Source: an uncultured Alphaproteobacteria bacterium | GTDB taxonomy: Bacteria > Pseudomonadota > Alphaproteobacteria > RF32 > CAG-239 | Direction of reading: 5' to 3' | Assembly (NCBI GenBank): GCA_944390375.1 | Contig: CALXPZ010000049.1 | Location: 1 to 57,491, forward strand | Length of the DNA: 57,491 bases | Shown here: positions 13,275 through 22,333 of the stretch, piece by piece | Layout of the letters: every line of letters starts with the position of its first letter | How positions within the stretch are numbered: position 1 is the stretch's first letter | Position numbers and translations under genes: made by a program | The notes under the pieces: generated by a model | Database searches by the model: none | Seen by the model: the letters and a program-made list of their open reading frames with translations, nothing else | Told to the model about the DNA's origin: nothing

Positions 13275-14780
13275 TCAGGGTTTGCGAGCCATCACAATCC
13301 AACCCCAGACCTCTTTTTCTCCTTCGTTGCGGAGTTTGACCCGGGTCATTTTTTCGATGATAAAGCCTCGTTTTTTCAGCCCGTTTTCAACATAATCGCG
13401 ACTGTGCAGAAAACGCCCCGACATATGCAAAAAATAGTCGCCGCCGGAGGTGTTTTCGCTAATGCTGAAAAGAATCCGCCCGCCCGGTTTCAGCGCCTCG
13501 TACAGCAACACGAAAAGTCCGCCGAGCTCACCGAAATAAGTCAGCACATCGGCCGCATTAATCAGGTCGTAGACATTTACGCGGCGGCTTAAAAATTTAT
13601 TCAGATCCTGATTGTAGAGGTGGGTGTAGATTTTTTTGCGGGCGGCAACCGCCAGCATTTTTTCTGAAATATCGACGCCGTCAAGCCCTCTGAATTTTGC
13701 ATATTTGCGCAGATAGGCACCGCACAGACCAGTGCCGCAGCCGGCATCGAGAATCTTCATCTTTTTCAGTTTCTCGTTTTGCGCCAAAGCTTCCAGAGTT
13801 TTGCTCATCAGGCTCGGAACGGCATAATCAAGATCGCCCAAAACCTCTTCAAAATCATCGGCAAAAGCATCAAAAATATCTTGCACATACCCACTGCCGA
13901 TTTGGCTGACATGACCGCTGTTTAACATGGCCGCCGCCATATGGGCGGCAACCGGATCTTCCGGATATTCCTGCTGCCAGCGTCGTATATAGGTGAGCAC
14001 ATCGGTTCCCGGACTTTCGACCGCTATCTCGTAAAGCAGATAACCGAAGTTGATTTGCTGATCGCTGCTGCCTTTGGAGAGGACAACCGCCCGCCAGCCC
14101 ATTTCGAGCGCGCGGTCATATTCTTTTTTTTGCTGGAAAGCCTGCGACAACATATTGCACAGCCAGCAATCACCGGGATTTTTTTTGTAAAGAGCTGCCA
14201 GAATCAAAACCGCCTCATCAGCATAACCAAGCTCCAGGCATATGCCTGCCAAAAGATTGCCCGCCTCAACCGACTGCGGGTAAGACTGAACAGCCCGTTT
14301 AGCATAAAAATAGGCGGTTGCATAATCTTTGCGTTCAAAATAAATGGAAGCGGCATTGATAACCGCGGTATAAAAATCGCGCTGAACATCCATGGCCTGC
14401 TGATAGTATTTCAGCGCCTGATCGGGATGTTTTTTCCGGTAGGCCACATTGCCCAAAACAGACAACGCCGAGGCGTTTGCCGGATTTATCTTCAGCGCTT
14501 TTTCCGCGTATTTCCGGGCGCCGGCGCAATCGTTCATCTCATATAATATGATTGCCAGATTGGCGGCCGCGGTATCCGATGATTTCTCCGCTTTAAGCGC
14601 TTTCCGGTAATAGGCGACAGCCTCTTCTTTCTGCCCCAGTCCGTCATAACAGTTGGCGATGTAAACCAAAATATCACCACGTTTCGGATCTTCTGCCAAA
14701 ACTTTCAAAAAAGAGCGCAGCGCCGCCGCATAATTTTTCTTTTGATAACAGGCAACGGCCTTTTCTTCCGTTTTTTGCAA
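13275..14780 (-). CDS. TPR-repeat protein with C-terminal SAM-dependent methyltransferase (COG4976-like)
   Basis: Multiple TPR repeats; FDAFADDFE..L..LDY; ILDAGCGTGLCG. Confidence 0.88.
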   Translation of the reverse strand: MQKTEEKAVACYQKKNYAAALRSFLKVLAEDPKRGDILVYIANCYDGLGQKEEAVAYYRKALKAEKSSDTAAANLAIILYEMNDCAGARKYAEKALKINPANASALSVLGNVAYRKKHPDQALKYYQQAMDVQRDFYTAVINAASIYFERKDYATAYFYAKRAVQSYPQSVEAGNLLAGICLELGYADEAVLILAALYKKNPGDCWLCNMLSQAFQQKKEYDRALEMGWRAVVLSKGSSDQQINFGYLLYEIAVESPGTDVLTYIRRWQQEYPEDPVAAHMAAAMLNSGHVSQIGSGYVQDIFDAFADDFEEVLGDLDYAVPSLMSKTLEALAQNEKLKKMKILDAGCGTGLCGAYLRKYAKFRGLDGVDISEKMLAVAARKKIYTHLYNQDLNKFLSRRVNVYDLINAADVLTYFGELGGLFVLLYEALKPGGRILFSISENTSGGDYFLHMSGRFLHSRDYVENGLKKRGFIIEKMTRVKLRNEGEKEVWGWIVMARKP

Positions 14781-14882: not shown

Positions 14883-14968
14883 GGGGGTATGGCGGAACTG
14901 GTAGACGCGCTAGACTCAAAATCTTGTGGCCTCAGGCCGTGTCAGTTCGAGTCTGACTACCCCTACCA
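14883..14968 (+). tRNA. tRNA-Leu(CAA)
   Basis: Acceptor stem GGGGGTA/TACCCCT, anticodon loop CTCAAAA, long variable arm, GTTCGAGTC T-loop, encoded CCA. Confidence 0.97.
14908..14968 (+). repeat. attL, 61-bp direct repeat (3' part of tRNA-Leu)
   Basis: Identical to 20464-20524. Confidence 0.95.
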
Positions 14969-15120: not shown

Positions 15121-15573
15121 TTATCTTGCCTTTTGTCTACTGTTTTCCAAAATAATCCTGTCTATTTTTACCTGTTGTTCTATCCGTTCCCTGATTCCCT
15201 GATTATCAATACAACGCAGGCGGTATTTCGGATAATCCTCACGCAAACTGTCAACAAAGTCGATAAATTTATCCTGCGGGGCATCGTCTGTACTGCCGCC
15301 CAAAAGCGAAAAAGCATTGGTAAAAGCGCTGACTTTTTCAACCGGTAAATTCCAGCTTTCGGCCAGATTCTGTATTTTTAAGGCCTCGTCATAAACATTT
15401 GTCAGGCCTTTTATGCCGACGCCGCCCAGAGCCAGCCCGCCCAACTTAGCAATAAAATTGTTCTGTATCTTGTCCGCGGTTTTGGCAAAAGCCCCCTGCA
15501 GCCCGTCAAGCTGTTTTTTGGCATCTCCAACGTTCAGCCAAAAGTTGATTACGGCATCAGAAAACATACTCAT
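15121..15573 (-). pseudogene. Tape measure protein N-terminal fragment fused by deletion to an unrelated tail
   Basis: Ala/Gly/Leu helical start, NLAESWNLPVEKVSAFTNAFSLLGGSTDDA, then an abrupt change of composition; lies downstream of the tail chaperone. Confidence 0.6.
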
Positions 15574-15587
15574 TTTATTTTTCCATT

Positions 15588-15608
15588 AAAAAAGCCCCGA
15601 GCGGGGCG
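15588..15608 (-). terminator. Terminator of the two-gene moron
   Basis: Minus strand GCCCCG-CT-CGGGGC-TTTTT. Confidence 0.6.
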
Positions 15609-15614
15609 TGTTAT

Positions 15615-16148
15615 TCATTTTTTTGTTTTCTTTCTGGATAACCAGCTAACAATTCCTATTCCTGCGGTACTGATAATACCGATAGCGAGTATTGCTTTTA
15701 CCAAAAACTTAGCAACCCACTCTTCCTTCAGGTGCAGAGCATACGCCGCCAAGGCAATCACAGACAGGAACAAAACTGCCCCTATTATTCTTCCGATATT
15801 AACCGAATTTATGGCTTTTTTAGTAATAGCAAATTCATTTCTCTGAGCTTCTATGGCTTTATCTTGTTCCGTAACTGCCATTTGAACAATAATCTCTGCA
15901 AATTTGCCGTTTATATCATTGTAATATTTCAAAATCTCAGGAGAAGGGAGCGGCCCCTGTCTGATTTCAATATGATGTTCTTCTTTTTTATAAGCAACTT
16001 TACCCGAGCCCGGCTGACTAAGCCGACTAAAAGAAACACGCGCAGGAGTTTTTTCTTCTACAGTATTTTGTTTGTCTTCAACCACTCGTTTTTCATCGGT
16101 TTTAACTACACTTTGGGGATGCTTAAATTTTCTGCTGTTCTTTTTCAT
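15615..16148 (-). CDS. DUF2335-like membrane protein
   Basis: QGPLPSPEILKYYNDINGKFAEIIVQMAVTEQ followed by 2 TM helices. Confidence 0.8.
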   Translation of the reverse strand: MKKNSRKFKHPQSVVKTDEKRVVEDKQNTVEEKTPARVSFSRLSQPGSGKVAYKKEEHHIEIRQGPLPSPEILKYYNDINGKFAEIIVQMAVTEQDKAIEAQRNEFAITKKAINSVNIGRIIGAVLFLSVIALAAYALHLKEEWVAKFLVKAILAIGIISTAGIGIVSWLSRKKTKK

Positions 16149-16341
16149 GGCTTTTTATCGCTTTATTCAGATAACCACCGACATTACTCCAATAACCGCC
16201 AATTCCGGATTTTTGGTTCTCTTCCTTGTTTTTCCTATCAACGCATAGGAAATCCAAGTAATTCATCAGCATAAAAGCACTTAACCCAAAAACAACCCCG
16301 AATAAAATGCCTTTGGTGTTATTTGAAATTTTCATCATCAT
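16123..16341 (-). CDS. Small hypothetical membrane protein
   Basis: AAGGAG RBS, one TM helix, YWSNVGGYLNKAI tail; overlaps the DUF2335 gene. Confidence 0.7.
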   Translation of the reverse strand: MMMKISNNTKGILFGVVFGLSAFMLMNYLDFLCVDRKNKEENQKSGIGGYWSNVGGYLNKAIKSHEKEQQKI

Positions 16342-16354
16342 ATCTCCTTTTAAG

Positions 16355-16384
16355 ATTATATAATGACTTTCATAAAAAAATCAA
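16355..16384 (-). promoter_or_regulatory. Sigma70-type promoter of the moron
   Basis: TTGATT-18 nt-TATAAT, followed by an RBS. Confidence 0.65.
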
Positions 16385-16399
16385 CGATAAAATCTTTTA

Positions 16400-16636
16400 T
16401 CAAGATTCAACGGGAACAACTCTTCTTAAATTTCCAAATTCAGGAACTTTTTTTGCAATTTCTTTCATCGTTGAAGGTTTTCCCTGTTCAATAAAATCTA
16501 TCATTTTTTGCCGGGCTTCTTCCGTTGGCAAAAAATATAATATACCCTCAATGCCTTCTTTATTATTTGAATGTTTTAACAACAAATCATAAAGCTTCTG
16601 CCCGTTTGTTGTTTCTTTATATTCTTTACCGCTCAC
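16400..16636 (-). CDS. Small hypothetical protein, candidate immunity protein copy 2
   Basis: 78 aa, tightly coupled to the upstream ORF, similar in pattern to 16639-16860. Confidence 0.65.
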   Translation of the reverse strand: MSGKEYKETTNGQKLYDLLLKHSNNKEGIEGILYFLPTEEARQKMIDFIEQGKPSTMKEIAKKVPEFGNLRRVVPVES

Positions 16637-16638
16637 TA

Positions 16639-16860
16639 TTACTTTCCTTTATTTATTTCAGCAGCAAGTTCAAGAATTCTGTCTGTATCTGTTTCTCCGG
16701 CATCAAGATAGCGCATAAGCTTTTTTTTCTTTTCATCGCCTTTTACAGAAACAAGCACGCCTCCGATAAAATCAGCATCATCCCATATATTTTTGAGACG
16801 GTCATAAAGAACCCGCCCGAGCTCCGTCTTGAATTTACTTCTATCAATCATAAATCCCAT
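16639..16860 (-). CDS. Small hypothetical protein, candidate immunity protein copy 1
   Basis: 73 aa, overlaps the end of the HPR-motif ORF. Confidence 0.7.
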   Translation of the reverse strand: MGFMIDRSKFKTELGRVLYDRLKNIWDDADFIGGVLVSVKGDEKKKKLMRYLDAGETDTDRILELAAEINKGK

Positions 16861-17185
16861 CTATATCTTCCTTTTCAATAATGATATATTCATTAAAACC
16901 ATTATTTTTTACTGTGTAATAATGATTTCCGATAGCTTTTTTGATTATCTTCTTTTTTCTTTGCTCTTTGGTGAGATTATTGTTCAGCTCATGCATAATT
17001 TGACCATACTCTTCTTTTGAAAGGCTGGCAACCGGTTTTTCACTTTTCCCGGAATTGCCCCCGGTTGATGCAAACTTGCCCTCTCCGTCACGCGGGTGTT
17101 TTTCCTCTTTCCATTCGTTGAATGTGGCAAAGCACGTGTCAATTTTGATCAGACGCGCGGCCGTGTTGATGGAAATAACAATCAT
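16844..17185 (-). CDS. Phage protein with NEWKEEKHPRDGEGKF motif and a small C-terminal domain
   Basis: Motif shared with the 19208-19984 ORF; ATGA overlap with the upstream frameshift frame. Confidence 0.75.
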   Translation of the reverse strand: MIVISINTAARLIKIDTCFATFNEWKEEKHPRDGEGKFASTGGNSGKSEKPVASLSKEEYGQIMHELNNNLTKEQRKKKIIKKAIGNHYYTVKNNGFNEYIIIEKEDIDGIYD

Positions 17186-17720
17186 TTTGCTTTATCCTTT
17201 GCCCGGTTACAGGCTACAATTTCGTTTTGTGCGCGGACATAAGCAGCCAGATTGGCAAGATACAGATCACCCAAGTCCATCTGTTTTAACTCGGTTATTG
17301 AAACTTCCGGTTTTAAGATATTCCCTATGCAATTTGAGAATCCGAAATCGGAAAAGCCGACTTCTTTTCGAGAATGGCGAGAAACGGCCGGAAGACTTCG
17401 GATTCTTTCATAAAAACCTTTTGGTGCTCCAAAATGGCAAGCCCCAACTCAATAACCGCCAACGGATTTTGAAAATAAGTGTTGACTTTTTCCAGGCTCA
17501 TTGTGTCAACGGCATTTTGCCCGCTTGCATCCAAAAGCGTCGCCAAGGGCAACAAATCAGCCAGAAATGGCTTAATTGACTTGTCTTTTGAACTGACATA
17601 CCGGTCAACAAAATTGAGCCCGTCAAGCGCGTCAAAAAGGCGGATGGAAAACGTCAACTTTTGATTGTCCAAATCTTTGATAGTTATTTTTTTTATTGTT
17701 TCCATTGAAAACTCCGACAA
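17182..17720 (-). CDS. Tail assembly chaperone G (17325-17720) with probable -1 frameshift product GT ending at 17182
   Basis: The -1 frame is open from GGTTTTT (17412-17418) to TGA at 17182-17184, reading ...SITELKQMDLGDLYLANLAAYVRAQNEIVACNRAKDKAK; lies upstream of the tape measure fragment. Confidence 0.65.
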
Positions 17721-17771
17721 AAAACGCCCCGCCGACGATTGCCGGCAGAGCTTGACTGTAAAAAACGTTTA

Positions 17772-18185
17772 TTATATAAAAGAAAAGCCGCGGTGTTGCA
17801 GCACTGGATGTTTTGTTAACTCAGAAAGGGGTTTATCCCCCTTGATTTCCGCACGCTCTCCCGTTGAGCCTTCCTGCCGTCCTTTGGCGTCTTCGCCATC
17901 CATGCCAAGCCACTCATGCCCGTTGACCAGAGGCAGAAGCTTGAAACTCTCTGCCCCCTTGGATAGTTCTTCGGGAGAAATATAAACTTTATAAATCTTT
18001 TCCGGGTCTATCTCTTCTCCGTCAACATCCGGACTGCCGCCGTCTATCAGCTCTTTGCCCAGATATTCAAGTATCCCTGACCGCAAAATCGGGCTTTCGT
18101 CAACGAAGAGATAACCATTCTCATCCATATGCCGGTGCCCGCTCTCATTGCTGAGGCGGGTTGTATAAGTTAAGAAATGTGTCAT
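17772..18185 (-). pseudogene. DUF2213 phage head (putative prohead protease) N-terminal fragment
   Basis: RHMDENGYLFV..SPILRSGILEYLGKEL...YKVY.SPEEL...SFKLLPLVNGH; truncated after ~120 aa. Confidence 0.8.
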
Positions 18186-19084
18186 TAAATTCTTCCTTTA
18201 ATTATTTCATACGAGCCGTCGTCAAGTCTCTTAGCCTCATAATCGGGGGCAACAAGAATTGACCGCGCAATACAGCGGCAGTTCGGACGTTCTGCCGGAA
18301 GACCGCGGTGTCCGTAGGCGTCAATCACCGGATAATGCTCGGAATCTCCCCATTTATAAATTTTGCCGTCAAGCTGTTTGTGTCCACCTTTGCCGGTTGA
18401 CACACGTTCGTCATGCGCGGTTGACCACATAAAAAACTTTACTCCCGCTGCAGCCTGCGCCTGCTCATTAAACGCCGCGTTCGCTTTTGCCGTCTGATCA
18501 CGGGCAATCCTTTTTATCCGGTCTTTGGCAATGTGGGTCTGAGTTTTAAGGTCTTTGGCAATCGTTTCCCAACGCTGTCCTGTTGTCATGCCGTCATAAA
18601 CGATGTTTTCAACGTTGTTTAAGGTCTGAAGCGTCGTATTTTGAATTAAACCGACATTGCGACGGATAATCAGCCGGATGGTTTCTTCAACCTCTTTGCT
18701 GTCAAAATTAAGGGTAAAACTGTCGCCGTACATCTCGCGCATAACCCGCGCAAGGGAAGATTTTGCACCGCGCTTAACAAGACGTATAAATTTTTGTACA
18801 ATCTTCTCGGCATTGCGCAAAAAGCGCCCGAGATATTCCCCTTTATACCAAGCAATCAGCTTTTCCACATTACGCACAGTCGGCTTTTTACCCTGAGGCG
18901 CGGCATTTTCCATACGAACGGTGGTGTAGACGTCTTCCAGACTAGCAAATAAGGCGGAGAGCATTTTTTCCGTCTCCGCCTCAATCGCTTTGCGATAGTA
19001 ACCATCCGCGTGCTTGTTTTTGGCAATGTCATCCATTACCTTAAACCCGCCCGCCGCTCGTGCCCGTGCGTTTTGCTTTTGCAT
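18185..19084 (-). CDS. Phage minor head / head morphogenesis protein (MuF, SPP1 gp7 family), no C-terminal toxin
   Basis: RIARDQTAKAN, FMWSTAHDERV, H..LDGKIYKW, PAERPNCRC; start taken at MQKQN. Confidence 0.9.
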   Translation of the reverse strand: MQKQNARARAAGGFKVMDDIAKNKHADGYYRKAIEAETEKMLSALFASLEDVYTTVRMENAAPQGKKPTVRNVEKLIAWYKGEYLGRFLRNAEKIVQKFIRLVKRGAKSSLARVMREMYGDSFTLNFDSKEVEETIRLIIRRNVGLIQNTTLQTLNNVENIVYDGMTTGQRWETIAKDLKTQTHIAKDRIKRIARDQTAKANAAFNEQAQAAAGVKFFMWSTAHDERVSTGKGGHKQLDGKIYKWGDSEHYPVIDAYGHRGLPAERPNCRCIARSILVAPDYEAKRLDDGSYEIIKGRI

Positions 19085-19091
19085 TATCCGC

Positions 19092-19120
19092 TTGCCTTTT
19101 TTCGTTTTTTGGGGTATTAT
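19092..19120 (+). promoter_or_regulatory. Sigma70-type promoter on the strand opposite the head operon
   Basis: TTGCCT-17 nt-TATTAT, with an overlapping TATAAT at 19118-19123. Confidence 0.65.
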
Positions 19121-19126
19121 AATATT

Positions 19127-19216
19127 AAGACTGGAAGTTGAATGAGGAAAATGGACTGTCATTCATAAAGTTGAATTAGTGAGTCAACCTTTCGACGCTT
19201 CCGGTCTTTATTTTTT
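19127..19216 (+). ncRNA. Candidate structured small RNA (three-way junction)
   Basis: 11-bp closing stem 19127-19137/19198-19208, 7-bp hairpin 19139-19145/19159-19165, 5-bp hairpin 19170-19174/19184-19188, U-tract after; begins at the expected +1 of the promoter. Confidence 0.55.
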
Positions 19217-19984
19217 GTAAATTTCAAAAGCTGTTAAAACAAATTGCAGTTTTTTATTGTTAAACTCGGGCTTTATAACAGCCTTTTTATTTCCCGAAGA
19301 TATAACAAACCGACCATTTGTTCCTATCTCTAACTTTCCTTTTTCAATAATATCCGTCAGATTGTTTAGTAACTCCTCTAGATTTTGCCCCGTTTCTTTT
19401 CGGCGCTTGATAATATGGGCAAGCCCCATACTTTCATTACCCCATACAAGGTCTATATCTCCTATGTCCTTACGGGTGAAAGCCCCCTTGACATGACCTT
19501 TTTTCTCATGCATGAGCTTATCAATGGCTGCCTGTCCTTTAACACCCGTAAATTCCTCGCCAAGAAGCTCTTCAACATCCGCATCTTTCTCCTCATCTCC
19601 GCCGCCTTGGCCGAACTTTCCGTCTTTACCGCGCGGGTGGTCTTCTTCCCGCCACTCGTTTGCTGCCTGAAACTCGGACATAACTTGCGGCGTAATATCC
19701 TCATAGCCGTCGAGCCCTTCCGTTTCAGTATCAAAAGACAGACCGTCAAGGTTAAACTGCTTAAACTGTTTTAACCATTCAAAAACTTCATCCTGCTTTG
19801 CGCCAAGGTTGACAAGAGTGCTTGCCACTTCGGCATACGACTTGATATTTTCCGCAAGCTCTTTTTCCGTTGCCTCTTCCAGCGGGTTAAAAGTAAAGTC
19901 CGTAAATTTGACAAACTTCCCGCCGTCAACCCCGGCAACAATGCCGTACATAACCAGTAGGTTATTGTCCCCATTCCCCAGCAT
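19208..19984 (-). CDS. 5'-truncated DUF1073-type portal C-terminus + HPR motif + PBECR-like (barnase/EndoU/colicin E5-D/RelE) nuclease domain
   Basis: DFTFNPLEEATEKELAE (portal end), NEWREEDHPRGKDGKFGQGGG, GAFTRKDIGDIDLVWGNESMGLAHIIKRR...FVLTAFE. Confidence 0.7.
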   Translation of the reverse strand: MLGNGDNNLLVMYGIVAGVDGGKFVKFTDFTFNPLEEATEKELAENIKSYAEVASTLVNLGAKQDEVFEWLKQFKQFNLDGLSFDTETEGLDGYEDITPQVMSEFQAANEWREEDHPRGKDGKFGQGGGDEEKDADVEELLGEEFTGVKGQAAIDKLMHEKKGHVKGAFTRKDIGDIDLVWGNESMGLAHIIKRRKETGQNLEELLNNLTDIIEKGKLEIGTNGRFVISSGNKKAVIKPEFNNKKLQFVLTAFEIYKK

Positions 19985-20293
19985 TTATGGTCAGAAGTCT
20001 TGTCAAAAGAAGATTATATTATTTCTGACGAATACGGCTCATTCAGCAAAGACCTCCTCGCCTGCCATTTCCAGCGTTTCAGCGATAAAATCGGCATAAA
20101 GATTGTCTTCAAGCAAATGCGCCATACTGCCAGCACGGCCTACGCCGAAGCCGGCGTTCCGAGTGACGCAATTATCTCAATTACCGGACACACAGACGAA
20201 TCCACCTTTAACCGCTTTTACAAGGCCAATACGGCAGCTTTATCTATGACTGCATTAAAAGGTAGATTGAAGTCGGAAAAAGAAAGAAAGTAA
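19961..20293 (+). pseudogene. Tyrosine integrase C-terminal fragment
   Basis: VIVPIP...KQMRHTASTAYAEAG...ITGHTDESTFNRFY (box II and catalytic Tyr); N-terminal part deleted; adjacent to attR. Confidence 0.85.
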
Positions 20294-20623: not shown

Positions 20624-21397
20624 CTATTTATATTCTTTGTACAGCATTCTCAACTTGCTTCTCAAATGTCCATTCGGCAAAATGTGCCCCAGCGCATCGA
20701 GGGTTTTATACAAGATCTTTTTCAGATAATCTTTCAGATGTGTTTTGACGCCATACTTTTTCAAGATTGTCTGCAAATTACCGCGATACCAATAGTAGTC
20801 CAGAAAATCATCATTTTCGGGAACTTCGCTGTTTTTGTAACAATCGCAAAAATCAATTTGTTCGCTGATTTTTCTAAAAGCACAAACGTCGCCACTTTCT
20901 TCCGATAAATTGATAAAAAGAAGCGACGGCTTCTTGCCCGGATTCAGCGCGCACAGACGTGCAAACAGTGTTTTGATTTCTTCGTCCGAAGGCATTATGC
21001 CGTCAAACCATTTCGGCGCGAAACAATACAAATACAGAATATCCTTGAGATCTTTGGTTGTTTCGTACAAGCGGTCAATCCGGCGGTTATATTTTTCTTT
21101 CAGAAGCTCAAACTCTTCGTCAAAATTATTTTCATCTTTGAAATCATGCAGAAACAACAAATTGCTGCCGGTATCAAGATAACCGATATTCTTTTTAGTA
21201 TCTTTTTCTCTATCCCTTTGCATATTTTCTTTTTGAAAGAATCCTTCAAAATGATTTTCAAGCAAAGTTACCGCCTTTTCCAAACTGGTTGGTCCGATCC
21301 AATCGAACGGCAGCGAGCGCCGTCTCTTTTTGGCTTCTCTCAACGCCTGAGCTCCCACGCAGGAACACCCGATCGGGATTATTATATCATATTTCAT
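20624..21397 (-). CDS. DUF1796 family putative papain-like cysteine peptidase, copy 1
   Basis: IIPIGCSCVGAQALR, SLPFDW, FLHDF, EKYNRRIDRL. Confidence 0.8.
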   Translation of the reverse strand: MKYDIIIPIGCSCVGAQALREAKKRRRSLPFDWIGPTSLEKAVTLLENHFEGFFQKENMQRDREKDTKKNIGYLDTGSNLLFLHDFKDENNFDEEFELLKEKYNRRIDRLYETTKDLKDILYLYCFAPKWFDGIMPSDEEIKTLFARLCALNPGKKPSLLFINLSEESGDVCAFRKISEQIDFCDCYKNSEVPENDDFLDYYWYRGNLQTILKKYGVKTHLKDYLKKILYKTLDALGHILPNGHLRSKLRMLYKEYK

Positions 21398-21556: not shown

Positions 21557-22333
21557 TTATTTGTATTCTTTATACAACATCCTTATTTTGCCGCGGATGT
21601 GCTGGTTGGGAATTATGCGGCTTACGGCATCAAGGATTTTAAATGAAATTTTTTTGAGAATGTCTTTGGCATTTTTGCGAACTTTATACAAATTCAAAAC
21701 GCTCTCAACATTCTTTTTATAATAAACATAATCGGGGAAATTTTCATCGTATTCCGCATCCTGATCACGGTAGCAGTCATAACAATCTATATCTCCGTTT
21801 TTGGTCTTGCGCTTTTCAAAACCGGTTCTACCGGCCTCGGCATCGGCCAAATTGATAAACAGCAGGCGGTGATGACGGCCGGGATACATCTCCCGCAGCT
21901 TGGCAAGAGAGGCTTCCAGCTCTTCTTCCGCAGGCGTGTGCGAAAACTGCTCTTTTTTGAAAATATGCAAATACAAAATATTCTTTGAATCGTTTATTGT
22001 CTGATAAATGCGTTTGATCCGGCGATCGTATTTTTCACGCAAAAGGACATATTCCTCATCAAAGCGGGAAACGTCCGTAAACTCGTGCAGAAACAAAATA
22101 TTGGTGCGCGTGTTAATGTAACCGACATTCTTTTTGGTATCTTTTTCAAATTTTTTCAGGTCTTCTTTTTCAAAAAAACCTTCAAAGCCCGTTTCCAGGA
22201 AACGAACCGCCTGTTCAAAGGAAAGCGGGATAATCCAGTCAAACGGCAGGGAGCGGCTTCTTTTCTTAACGCTTTTCAAGGCCTGTGCCGCGGCGCAAAA
22301 GCACCCCATCGGAATAATTATGTCGTATTTCAT
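21557..22333 (-). CDS. DUF1796 family putative papain-like cysteine peptidase, copy 2
   Basis: IIPMGCFCAAAQALK, SLPFDW, FLHEF, EKYDRRIKRI. Confidence 0.8.
   Translation of the reverse strand: MKYDIIIPMGCFCAAAQALKSVKKRSRSLPFDWIIPLSFEQAVRFLETGFEGFFEKEDLKKFEKDTKKNVGYINTRTNILFLHEFTDVSRFDEEYVLLREKYDRRIKRIYQTINDSKNILYLHIFKKEQFSHTPAEEELEASLAKLREMYPGRHHRLLFINLADAEAGRTGFEKRKTKNGDIDCYDCYRDQDAEYDENFPDYVYYKKNVESVLNLYKVRKNAKDILKKISFKILDAVSRIIPNQHIRGKIRMLYKEYK

Follow-up and report, generated by a model that had tools for sequence, protein, structure and literature searches.

Why should two separate genes of an uncultured alphaproteobacterium carry the same 16-residue peptide, each ahead of a different C-terminal domain? 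The question is raised by contig CALXPZ010000049.1 of assembly GCA_944390375.1, all 57,491 nucleotides of which were analysed and are called the window here. An original prediction, made from this DNA and its open reading frames (ORFs), took the peptide to be a portable capsid-loading or protease-release tag for injected cargo. We found that it belongs to a widespread family with the pattern [AGS]-[ED]-W-x-E-x-x-H-P-R-x-x-x-G-[KR]-[FW] followed by a Gly/Ser linker, and that members of this family stand between the domains of phage proteins tied to the head module. The two copies and the cargo domains behind them, with lengths in amino acids (aa) and model confidence as the predicted local distance difference test (pLDDT), are as follows.

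19613-19660, minus strand: motif copy 1, NEWREEDHPRGKDGKF, residues 109-124 of the 258-aa ORF 19208-19984 (minus).
19544-19612, minus strand: linker after copy 1, Gly-rich and acidic, GQGGGDEEKDADVEELLGEE..., with pLDDT about 30 in a structural model.
19223-19483, minus strand: PBECR1 predicted RNase domain, the cargo of copy 1 (PF18809, E 6e-14, residues 168-254).
17072-17119, minus strand: motif copy 2, NEWKEEKHPRDGEGKF, residues 23-38 of the 113-aa ORF 16844-17185 (minus).
16844-17185, minus strand: intact 113-aa gene made of a 22-aa leader, the motif, a linker and a small cargo domain, with 21 relatives.
16847-17023, minus strand: small alpha+beta cargo domain of copy 2, LSKEEYG..HELNNNL...Y.V.N.GFNEY, about 59 aa.

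A six-frame regular-expression search for NEW.EE.HPR...GKF gave exactly two matches in the window, in two separate genes as had been claimed, with the strand corrected to minus for both; the plus-strand translation of either pair of coordinates is meaningless. The 14-residue core, W-x-E-x-x-HPR-x3-GKF, when back-translated into a DNA pattern, was found only at these two sites in the 1.47-Mb, 112-contig assembly, where about 2e-5 matches would be expected by chance (an estimate from roughly 37 bits of information content) and where a reversed-pattern control gave 0 matches. The strict core pattern and its reversed control were likewise absent from 400 other genomes sampled from the same phylum. 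The 42-nt cores of the two copies share 28 of 42 bases, close to the mean identity of 65% between random core pairs among 125 unrelated viral copies, and the flanks of the two window copies do not align to each other. Given this low DNA identity, the unalignable flanks and the uniqueness of the two sites within the assembly, the pair is therefore neither a recent duplication nor a product of chance, and the claim that the motif is conserved in protein and diverged in DNA stands.

Each copy leads through a Gly-rich or acidic linker into a different domain, again as proposed, with PBECR1 behind the first copy (52.8 bits against a Pfam gathering threshold of 27.6 in the 258-aa ORF) and the small alpha+beta domain behind the second. 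Kinship between these two cargo domains was considered and found no support in profile–profile comparison (hhalign), which gave a probability of 0.5%, and at the level of sequence their unrelatedness holds.

The peptide is abundant well beyond the window. The strict DNA pattern matched at least 132 viral-contig stretches, and the matches listed comprise 132 copies distributed over 119 distinct ORFs, as many as five of them falling in a single ORF. Aligning the 130 unique contexts gave a core consensus of W-[DEN]-E-x-[KDE]-H-P-R-[DGA]-x-[DG]-G-K-F, in which W, E, H, P, R, G, K and F are fixed by construction of the DNA-pattern search, preceded by D at -3 (24%), A at -2 (29%) and E or D at -1 (55%), and followed by [GTA]-x-G-G-G with Gly at 53–65% at positions +16 to +18. 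A profile built from 116 instances and searched against 1.84 billion representative proteins matched 3,184 at E ≤ 0.001, 306 at E ≤ 1e-10 and 9 at E ≤ 1e-30, all counted as protein clusters at 50% identity; the first figure is a lower bound because single copies score close to the threshold. These matches include relaxed variants such as FDPDQPRDEHGRW and NPNHDERGRF, and up to 18 matched stretches occurred in one protein of 7,334 aa. Successive copies, in the best 150 of the 3,184 profile matches, were mostly spaced 130–600 aa apart, the size of a domain.

Across 125 unique 42-nt cores every synonymous codon occurs at the fixed residues, with the Pro codon written as CCG in 45 cases, CCC in 29, CCA in 28 and CCT in 23, and with both families of Arg codon present (CGN 99, AGR 26). 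Selection therefore acts on the peptide and not on the DNA.

The shared junction peptide appears to be undescribed in the libraries and literature that we searched. It has no covering model in Pfam or NCBIfam, searches for motif strings in the literature turned up no paper describing it, and the publications retrieved on capsid targeting, polyvalent proteins, MuF, ejection and cargo, as judged from their titles and the opening of their abstracts, include none on the peptide. A 38-aa consensus-like natural copy searched by tblastn against phage records gave a single weak match (E = 3) to the portal of a Helicobacter pametensis prophage; short peptides are below the reach of BLAST, and no named, studied phage with the motif was found that way. 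Phage Mu, whose portal is C-terminally processed, was considered as a carrier and rejected, the motif being absent and the sole loose match lying in an antisense frame.

Where the peptide sits within its carriers was assessed with 71 stop-to-stop ORFs drawn from 80 loci with 3-kb flanks, all scanned with Pfam. Hits were obtained in 41 of them and none in the other 30, and by hand check not one of the 51 copies in the 41 annotated carriers fell inside a best-stretch domain envelope. In 19 of the 71 the same polypeptide carries a portal domain, from three Pfam families (PF06381 in 15, PF06074 in 3 and PF05136 in 1), and the motif is always C-terminal to it. MuF shares the polypeptide in 4, DUF2213 in 3 and Peptidase_S78_2 in 1. 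The portability suggested in the original prediction is supported, the peptide standing ahead of many unrelated cargo domains and being strongly tied to head-module proteins. The cargo domains found were PBECR1/2/3, LPD3, LPD13, Zeta toxin, ADPrib_exo_Tox, ART, ART-PolyVal, NUDIX, Topo IB, InPase, SAM lyase, RelA/SpoT and PI3_PI4-kinase or HipA-like domains. An equivalent picture of carriers and cargo emerged from 31 multi-copy proteins taken from the profile search, and carriers that combine MuF with the motif occur at L059, L066, L067, L071, P0009, P0010 and others.

Two carriers have architectures of separate interest. At L049 (1777-4275, minus) the motif is followed by about 7 residues without a Gly linker and then by an XkdF-type S78 protease domain, so that here the protease is the tagged module. 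In the multi-copy carrier P0018, residues about 1291–1337 near the C terminus match a LAGLIDADG-like domain (PF14528, E 1.3e-5), which may be an intein or homing endonuclease within a polyvalent protein.

Head genes also lie around the carriers. In 25 of the 71 the first copy stands within 60 residues of the ORF start, the others being internal or repeated, and 14 of these 25 stand-alone genes have head-module neighbours (terminase, portal, MuF/minor-head, protease, scaffold or major-head) among the two nearest ORFs on either side, 68 of the 80 listed neighbour ORFs having been compared with PHROGs after 12 nested, overlapping or duplicate ones were dropped. At L019, L026, L029, L050 and L074 the start of the motif gene overlaps the stop codon of a portal or MuF gene or lies within about 10 nt of it. 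Counted over 64 contig groups with local hidden Markov models (HMMs) for MuF, DUF2213 and portal, which are narrow, undercount and miss carriers that Pfam detects, MuF was found in 23, the DUF1073 portal in 23, DUF2213 in 12 and any of them in 30. Pfam and PHROG matches add 11 groups, giving at least 41 of 64 with a head gene within 3 kb. A motif HMM, a catalogue of downstream domains and a count of co-occurring head domains had been put forward as a check on the original prediction; run here, they returned many cargo families together with this association.

The lineage of the window's own 113-aa gene offers a close view of how cargo changes behind the peptide. When the 113-aa protein was used as a query, 21 relatives came to light, 66–179 aa long. 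Of 20 sequences aligned (the query and 19 of the relatives), 13, query included, have the same leader, MIVISINTAARLIKIDT.FATF, and the motif in constant form. The cargo varies: most relatives have the roughly 59-aa domain, in at least three divergent versions, and one (P0274) has the same leader and motif ahead of LPD3 (PF18798). In P0263 a C-terminal portal fragment is followed by the motif and the same small domain, so another phage has this cargo fused to a portal. The peptide is degenerate in P0272 and P0275, where it reads QPRD..G[KR]W.

The small cargo domain has no match in Pfam, PHROG or NCBIfam and no usable match in the ESM Atlas, and the 113-aa protein gave no tblastn match at E ≤ 1 in 50,697 phage records. 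LPD3 (PF18798) did not match the 113-aa protein (P0004) at E ≤ 0.01 or at E ≤ 1, and P0274 alone of the 20 aligned sequences matches it. Foldseek with the model of the small domain returned nothing from the PDB at E ≤ 0.001; 9 of the 14 best-ranked chains were RelE/ParE/HigB-type entries, at a non-significant E of 0.65–2.0 and from a model of mean pLDDT 62.5. Directly 3' of the tagged gene lie a 73-aa ORF (16639-16860, minus), which overlaps its end by 17 nt, and a 78-aa ORF (16400-16636, minus), neither with a family match; a 77-aa ORF occupies the place equivalent to that of the 73-aa ORF at L028. Alongside the weak, model-based hint of a RelE/ParE-like fold in the cargo, the 73- and 78-aa ORFs could be immunity or antitoxin genes.

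The locus L028, which represents an intact relative, also shows where the tagged gene belongs. There a homologous 125-aa gene lies between tube/chaperone genes and the tape measure, with small ORFs and then the tape measure downstream. The claim that one copy sits in the tail region, far from the head genes, therefore stands in its first part, by the gene order of L028; in the window, copy 2 is only 2.5 kb from the head genes because the prophage is deleted. In the window the TGA of an upstream -1 frame overlaps the ATG of the 113-aa gene (ATGA at 17185-17182), so this ATG is probably the true start. That -1 frame (17182-17340, minus) runs 3' of the 131-aa gene and is open across its stop for at least 53 codons, read from 17340; it looks like a G/GT-type programmed-frameshift extension of tail assembly chaperones. 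At L028 (1468-2389, minus) the tagged gene is separated from the tape measure by two extra genes, of 180 aa (phrog_1281) and 136 aa (no match), and in this phage lineage the gap between chaperone and tape measure seems to be a preferred site for the insertion of accessory genes.

We propose, tentatively and at a little short of an even chance, that the peptide is a capsid-targeting-like recognition tag for cargo inside the head. The peptide and its Gly/Ser linker would form a junction module immediately upstream of each cargo domain, joining that domain to a portal, MuF, DUF2213 or S78 protease/scaffold protein, to the previous cargo domain of a giant polyvalent protein, or to a short leader. 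As a small, locally folded handle, the peptide would be bound by a conserved component of the assembling head; through this binding the cargo would be built into the prohead or positioned within it, and the peptide would mark a point near which carrier and cargo later separate, whereupon the cargo would leave with the DNA. Of these steps, binding, packaging, cleavage and injection are ones that we infer. Such a tag would fit the abundance and strict conservation of the peptide, its repetition and position between domains, selection on the protein, the link to head-module genes and the precedent of T4 IPIII and P1 DarB; it would also fit the way in which, in the lineage of the window, cargo is exchanged while leader and motif stay the same. 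Two AlphaFold models of low confidence (mean pLDDT 62.5 and 49.4) weakly suggest that the peptide may be a small folded element. It looks alike in both: W-x-E forms a helical turn, after which the R and F positions pair as a beta-bridge, at a local pLDDT of 56–67 against less than 50 for the flanks. The model with the higher mean, that of the 113-aa protein, further places helices at 57–70 and 73–77 and three strands at 80–107. Neither model, both being too poor in quality, shows the peptide docked on a neighbouring domain.

Unlikely, though worth serious weight, is that the peptide is purely a processing signal, a site for a head-maturation protease or for a host protease after injection, which cuts polyproteins and fusions and has no part in targeting. 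Its repetition between domain pairs of giant proteins, each time ahead of a flexible Gly/Ser linker, would fit this, as would its place behind portal, MuF and protease domains, since cargo has to be released from these if it is to be injected. The autoprocessing peptidase domain MPTase-PolyVal was detected by Pfam in none of 102 carriers (the 71 ORFs and the 31 multi-copy proteins), which would therefore need another processing route. Several prohead proteases cut after Glu, and E or D stands at -1 in 58% of internal copies. The P1 capsid protein, too, is cleaved after Glu, between E120 and S121, as described in PMC9024508.

Copies close to the start of their protein argue the other way. Among 60 N-terminal copies from both data sets, 16 start fewer than 10 residues from Met (with MAE, MKQ or MSN before the W, for example) and have nothing to release, yet they are fully conserved and share with 309 internal copies the same preferences at -2 and -1 (A/G/S, then E/D). 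As such extreme N-terminal copies cannot release anything, a recognition role is favoured. A cleavage site specific to internal copies was sought and rejected, residues -8 to -1 being no different from those of N-terminal copies. The Asn before each window motif, offered in the original prediction as a possible cleavage site, is not supported as a general feature either: Asn occupies -1 in 5–6% of copies against 55–61% for E or D, and the similar Asn positions in the window's MuF and DUF2213 proteins are shared only with one close relative. The accompanying proteases, moreover, come from different families (DUF2213, S78_2 and phrog_3017) and would need one common specificity, and one carrier, P0033, the sole such case among the 102, does have other metallopeptidase-like domains.

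A linear motif that acts in the infected cell rather than in head assembly, by binding a host factor or by regulating or localizing the effector, is an improbable explanation. Eight residues are nearly invariant across phages of very different GC content and head-protein families, which a universally conserved partner would fit better than fast-evolving phage proteins, and every effector domain has its own copy. The 102 scanned carriers, however, have phage-type architectures only, with none of the ArdC, relaxase or primase domains of the polyvalent proteins of conjugative elements, although conjugative proteins also enter cells, and the association of the motif with portal, MuF and protease genes is a tight one. 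We know of no host-binding motif that resembles the peptide.

Least probable of the explanations that we weighed, and in our view highly so, is a passive boundary without a specific partner, whether a self-folding cap or hinge that insulates domains or a junction that eases cargo shuffling; the constant position between domains, the exchange of cargo behind the peptide and the modelled local turn or hairpin flanked by disorder would all suit it, but recombination junctions act on DNA and the core DNA is unconserved, while a hinge would need neither eight fixed residues that include W, H, P, R, K and F nor confinement to head-associated phage proteins, the strict pattern being absent from the 400 other cellular genomes sampled from the phylum. 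An N-degron exposed as an N-terminal Trp by cleavage was dropped, as it would leave the other fixed residues unexplained and as acidic residues beside the N terminus disfavour ClpS.

Several observations weigh against a capsid-targeting tag. Cargo that is part of a portal, MuF or protease fusion is attached to a head protein in any case and would seem to have no need of a targeting tag, and the diversity of the accompanying portal and protease families makes a single invariant binding pocket not obvious. Copy 2 of the window is encoded in the tail module and not in the head module, and 23 of the 64 contig groups have no head gene within the 3-kb flanks. The fixed residues in alignments A1, A3 and A7 are partly a matter of ascertainment, the loci and proteins having been found with the motif itself. 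A PDB profile search with the peptide returned 0 chains at E ≤ 10, and both structural models are poor. A stronger form of the targeting idea, in which nearly all portal/MuF-type tailed phages would use the peptide as a tag for capsid loading and ejection, we consider doubtful; on that view a handle of about 16 residues with a Gly linker would dock on a conserved site in the head interior and be necessary and sufficient to load any protein into the prohead and deliver it to the host along with the DNA.

The region of the window that holds both copies, 15121-20293, is a decayed, dead prophage remnant, and its two tagged genes are a portal–nuclease fragment and a small cargo protein. From one edge to the other its remaining features are these.

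20000-20293, plus strand: C-terminal fragment of an integrase (PF00589), abutting the truncated portal gene at one edge of the remnant.
19208-19984, minus strand: 3' fragment (258 aa) of a portal–motif–PBECR1 fusion gene, 66% identical to residues 402–652 of an intact 654-aa relative at L034.
19673-19900, minus strand: C-terminal piece of the portal domain (residues 29–104; phrog_146 positions 381–454 of 587).
18185-19162, minus strand: complete MuF/SPP1 gp7-type head morphogenesis gene (PF04233, phrog_324).
17772-18185, minus strand: N-terminal 137 aa of a truncated DUF2213-type head maturation protease/scaffold, 484 aa long at L034.
17325-17720, minus strand: 131-aa gene in the tail-chaperone position, near-identical at L028, where it follows the tube gene.
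15615-16148, minus strand: 177-aa predicted membrane protein (phrog_3996 'membrane protein', E 3e-16), with a weak DUF2335 match.
15121-15573, minus strand: N-terminal fragment of a tape measure, its first 98 aa or so matching the L028 tape measure (>471 aa), with 87% identity over 115 aligned.
14883-14968, plus strand: tRNA-Leu(CAA), at the other edge of the remnant.

The intact gene at L034 encodes 654–657 aa, with a DUF1073-type portal domain (PF06381) at residues 145–453, the motif, and PBECR1 at residues 570–636. Only the last 100 aa or so of the portal part remain in the window, and the window gene is therefore a fragment. The order at L034 is large terminase, portal fusion, MuF and the DUF2213 protease/scaffold; the window retains portal fragment, MuF and DUF2213 fragment in the same order, with the portal fusion encoded among virion late genes. 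In all, the genes for capsid, sheath and tube are gone from the remnant, as are two thirds of the portal gene and the greater part of both the protease and the tape-measure genes. The window MuF protein (325 aa) has PF04233 at 182–298 and ends about 27 residues later, with no motif and no C-terminal extension, and is thus not a MuF–toxin fusion.

Some genes in and around the remnant may be noted in passing. The membrane-protein gene at 15615-16148, between the neighbours of the tagged gene and the tape-measure fragment, is a moron-like insertion in the tail module. Just outside the remnant, 20624-21397 (minus) and 21557-22333 (minus) are tandem paralogues of 257 and 258 aa that both start MKYDIIIP..., the first of them matching DUF1796, a putative papain-like cysteine peptidase (PF08795, E 7e-11). 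Beside the tRNA-Leu, on the chromosomal side, 13275-14780 (minus) encodes a 501-aa fusion of TPR repeats with a class I SAM methyltransferase.

How tailed phages choose the proteins that are packed in the head and injected is known for only a few models, T4 and P1 among them, in which the signals have no recognizable consensus; in T4 the signal is removed by the prohead protease. If the capsid-targeting reading is true, the peptide would allow injected anti-defence and host-takeover enzymes to be recognized by a rule of sequence in phage genomes or metagenomes, and giant polyvalent proteins to be split into functional units; were it also sufficient for packaging, foreign proteins could be loaded into phage capsids by attaching it to them as a portable tag. 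The near-universal form, if true, would make it the first capsid-targeting signal with a recognizable consensus over thousands of phage lineages, and injected effectors would become predictable from sequence alone. For the window the practical result is the annotation of 15121-20293 as a dead prophage remnant with two tagged genes.

The genes of the window are of a known kind, the portal-fused and the stand-alone cargo of phage polyvalent-protein type. Such proteins were described by Iyer, Burroughs, Anand, de Souza and Aravind in 2017 (PMC5512222), whose main text gives MuF and portal fusions as the simplest PBECR architectures and presents the proteins as late-gene products for which packaging and injection are predicted. 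As these authors describe portal–PBECR fusions, the first gene of the window is a member of that kind, and the carriers found here resemble their phage-type proteins in fusing portal or MuF to PBECR, ART, Zeta, NUDIX, InPase or LPD. The main text, as distinct from the supplements, makes no mention of the junction peptide. It proposes the MPTase domain as the processing device of polyvalent proteins (PMC5512222); unlike in that proposal, MPTase is in none of the 102 motif carriers. A preprint on phi24B goes no further than showing a polyvalent protein in virions.

The arrangement also recalls the MuF polymorphic toxins set out in the main text of Jamet et al. 2017 (PMC5576092), where a constant, head-associated N-terminal part precedes variable C-terminal toxic domains and the junction peptide is not mentioned. 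Unlike in those toxins, the cargo of the window hangs on a portal and on a stand-alone protein, not on MuF. Polymorphic toxins of other kinds have pre-toxin boundary motifs, VENN in CdiA and PxxxxDPxGL in Rhs. The likeness to these is one of logic only, a short conserved peptide that borders a constant delivery part and exchangeable cargo, and both the sequence and the delivery machinery differ.

In its proposed role the peptide comes close to the capsid-targeting sequences of T4 IPIII and P1 DarB, which are N-terminal on injected, head-packed cargo (PMC9024508). According to the same source, the first 30 residues of DarB suffice to bring a reporter into P1 capsids, and its authors found no consensus among the N termini of the P1 Dar proteins. 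Our peptide is like these sequences in being short and, in about a third of motif carriers, N-terminal, a likeness in form and proposed role. Unlike those lineage-specific signals, this peptide, known from sequence alone, occurs in thousands of clusters, and there also internally and in repeats.

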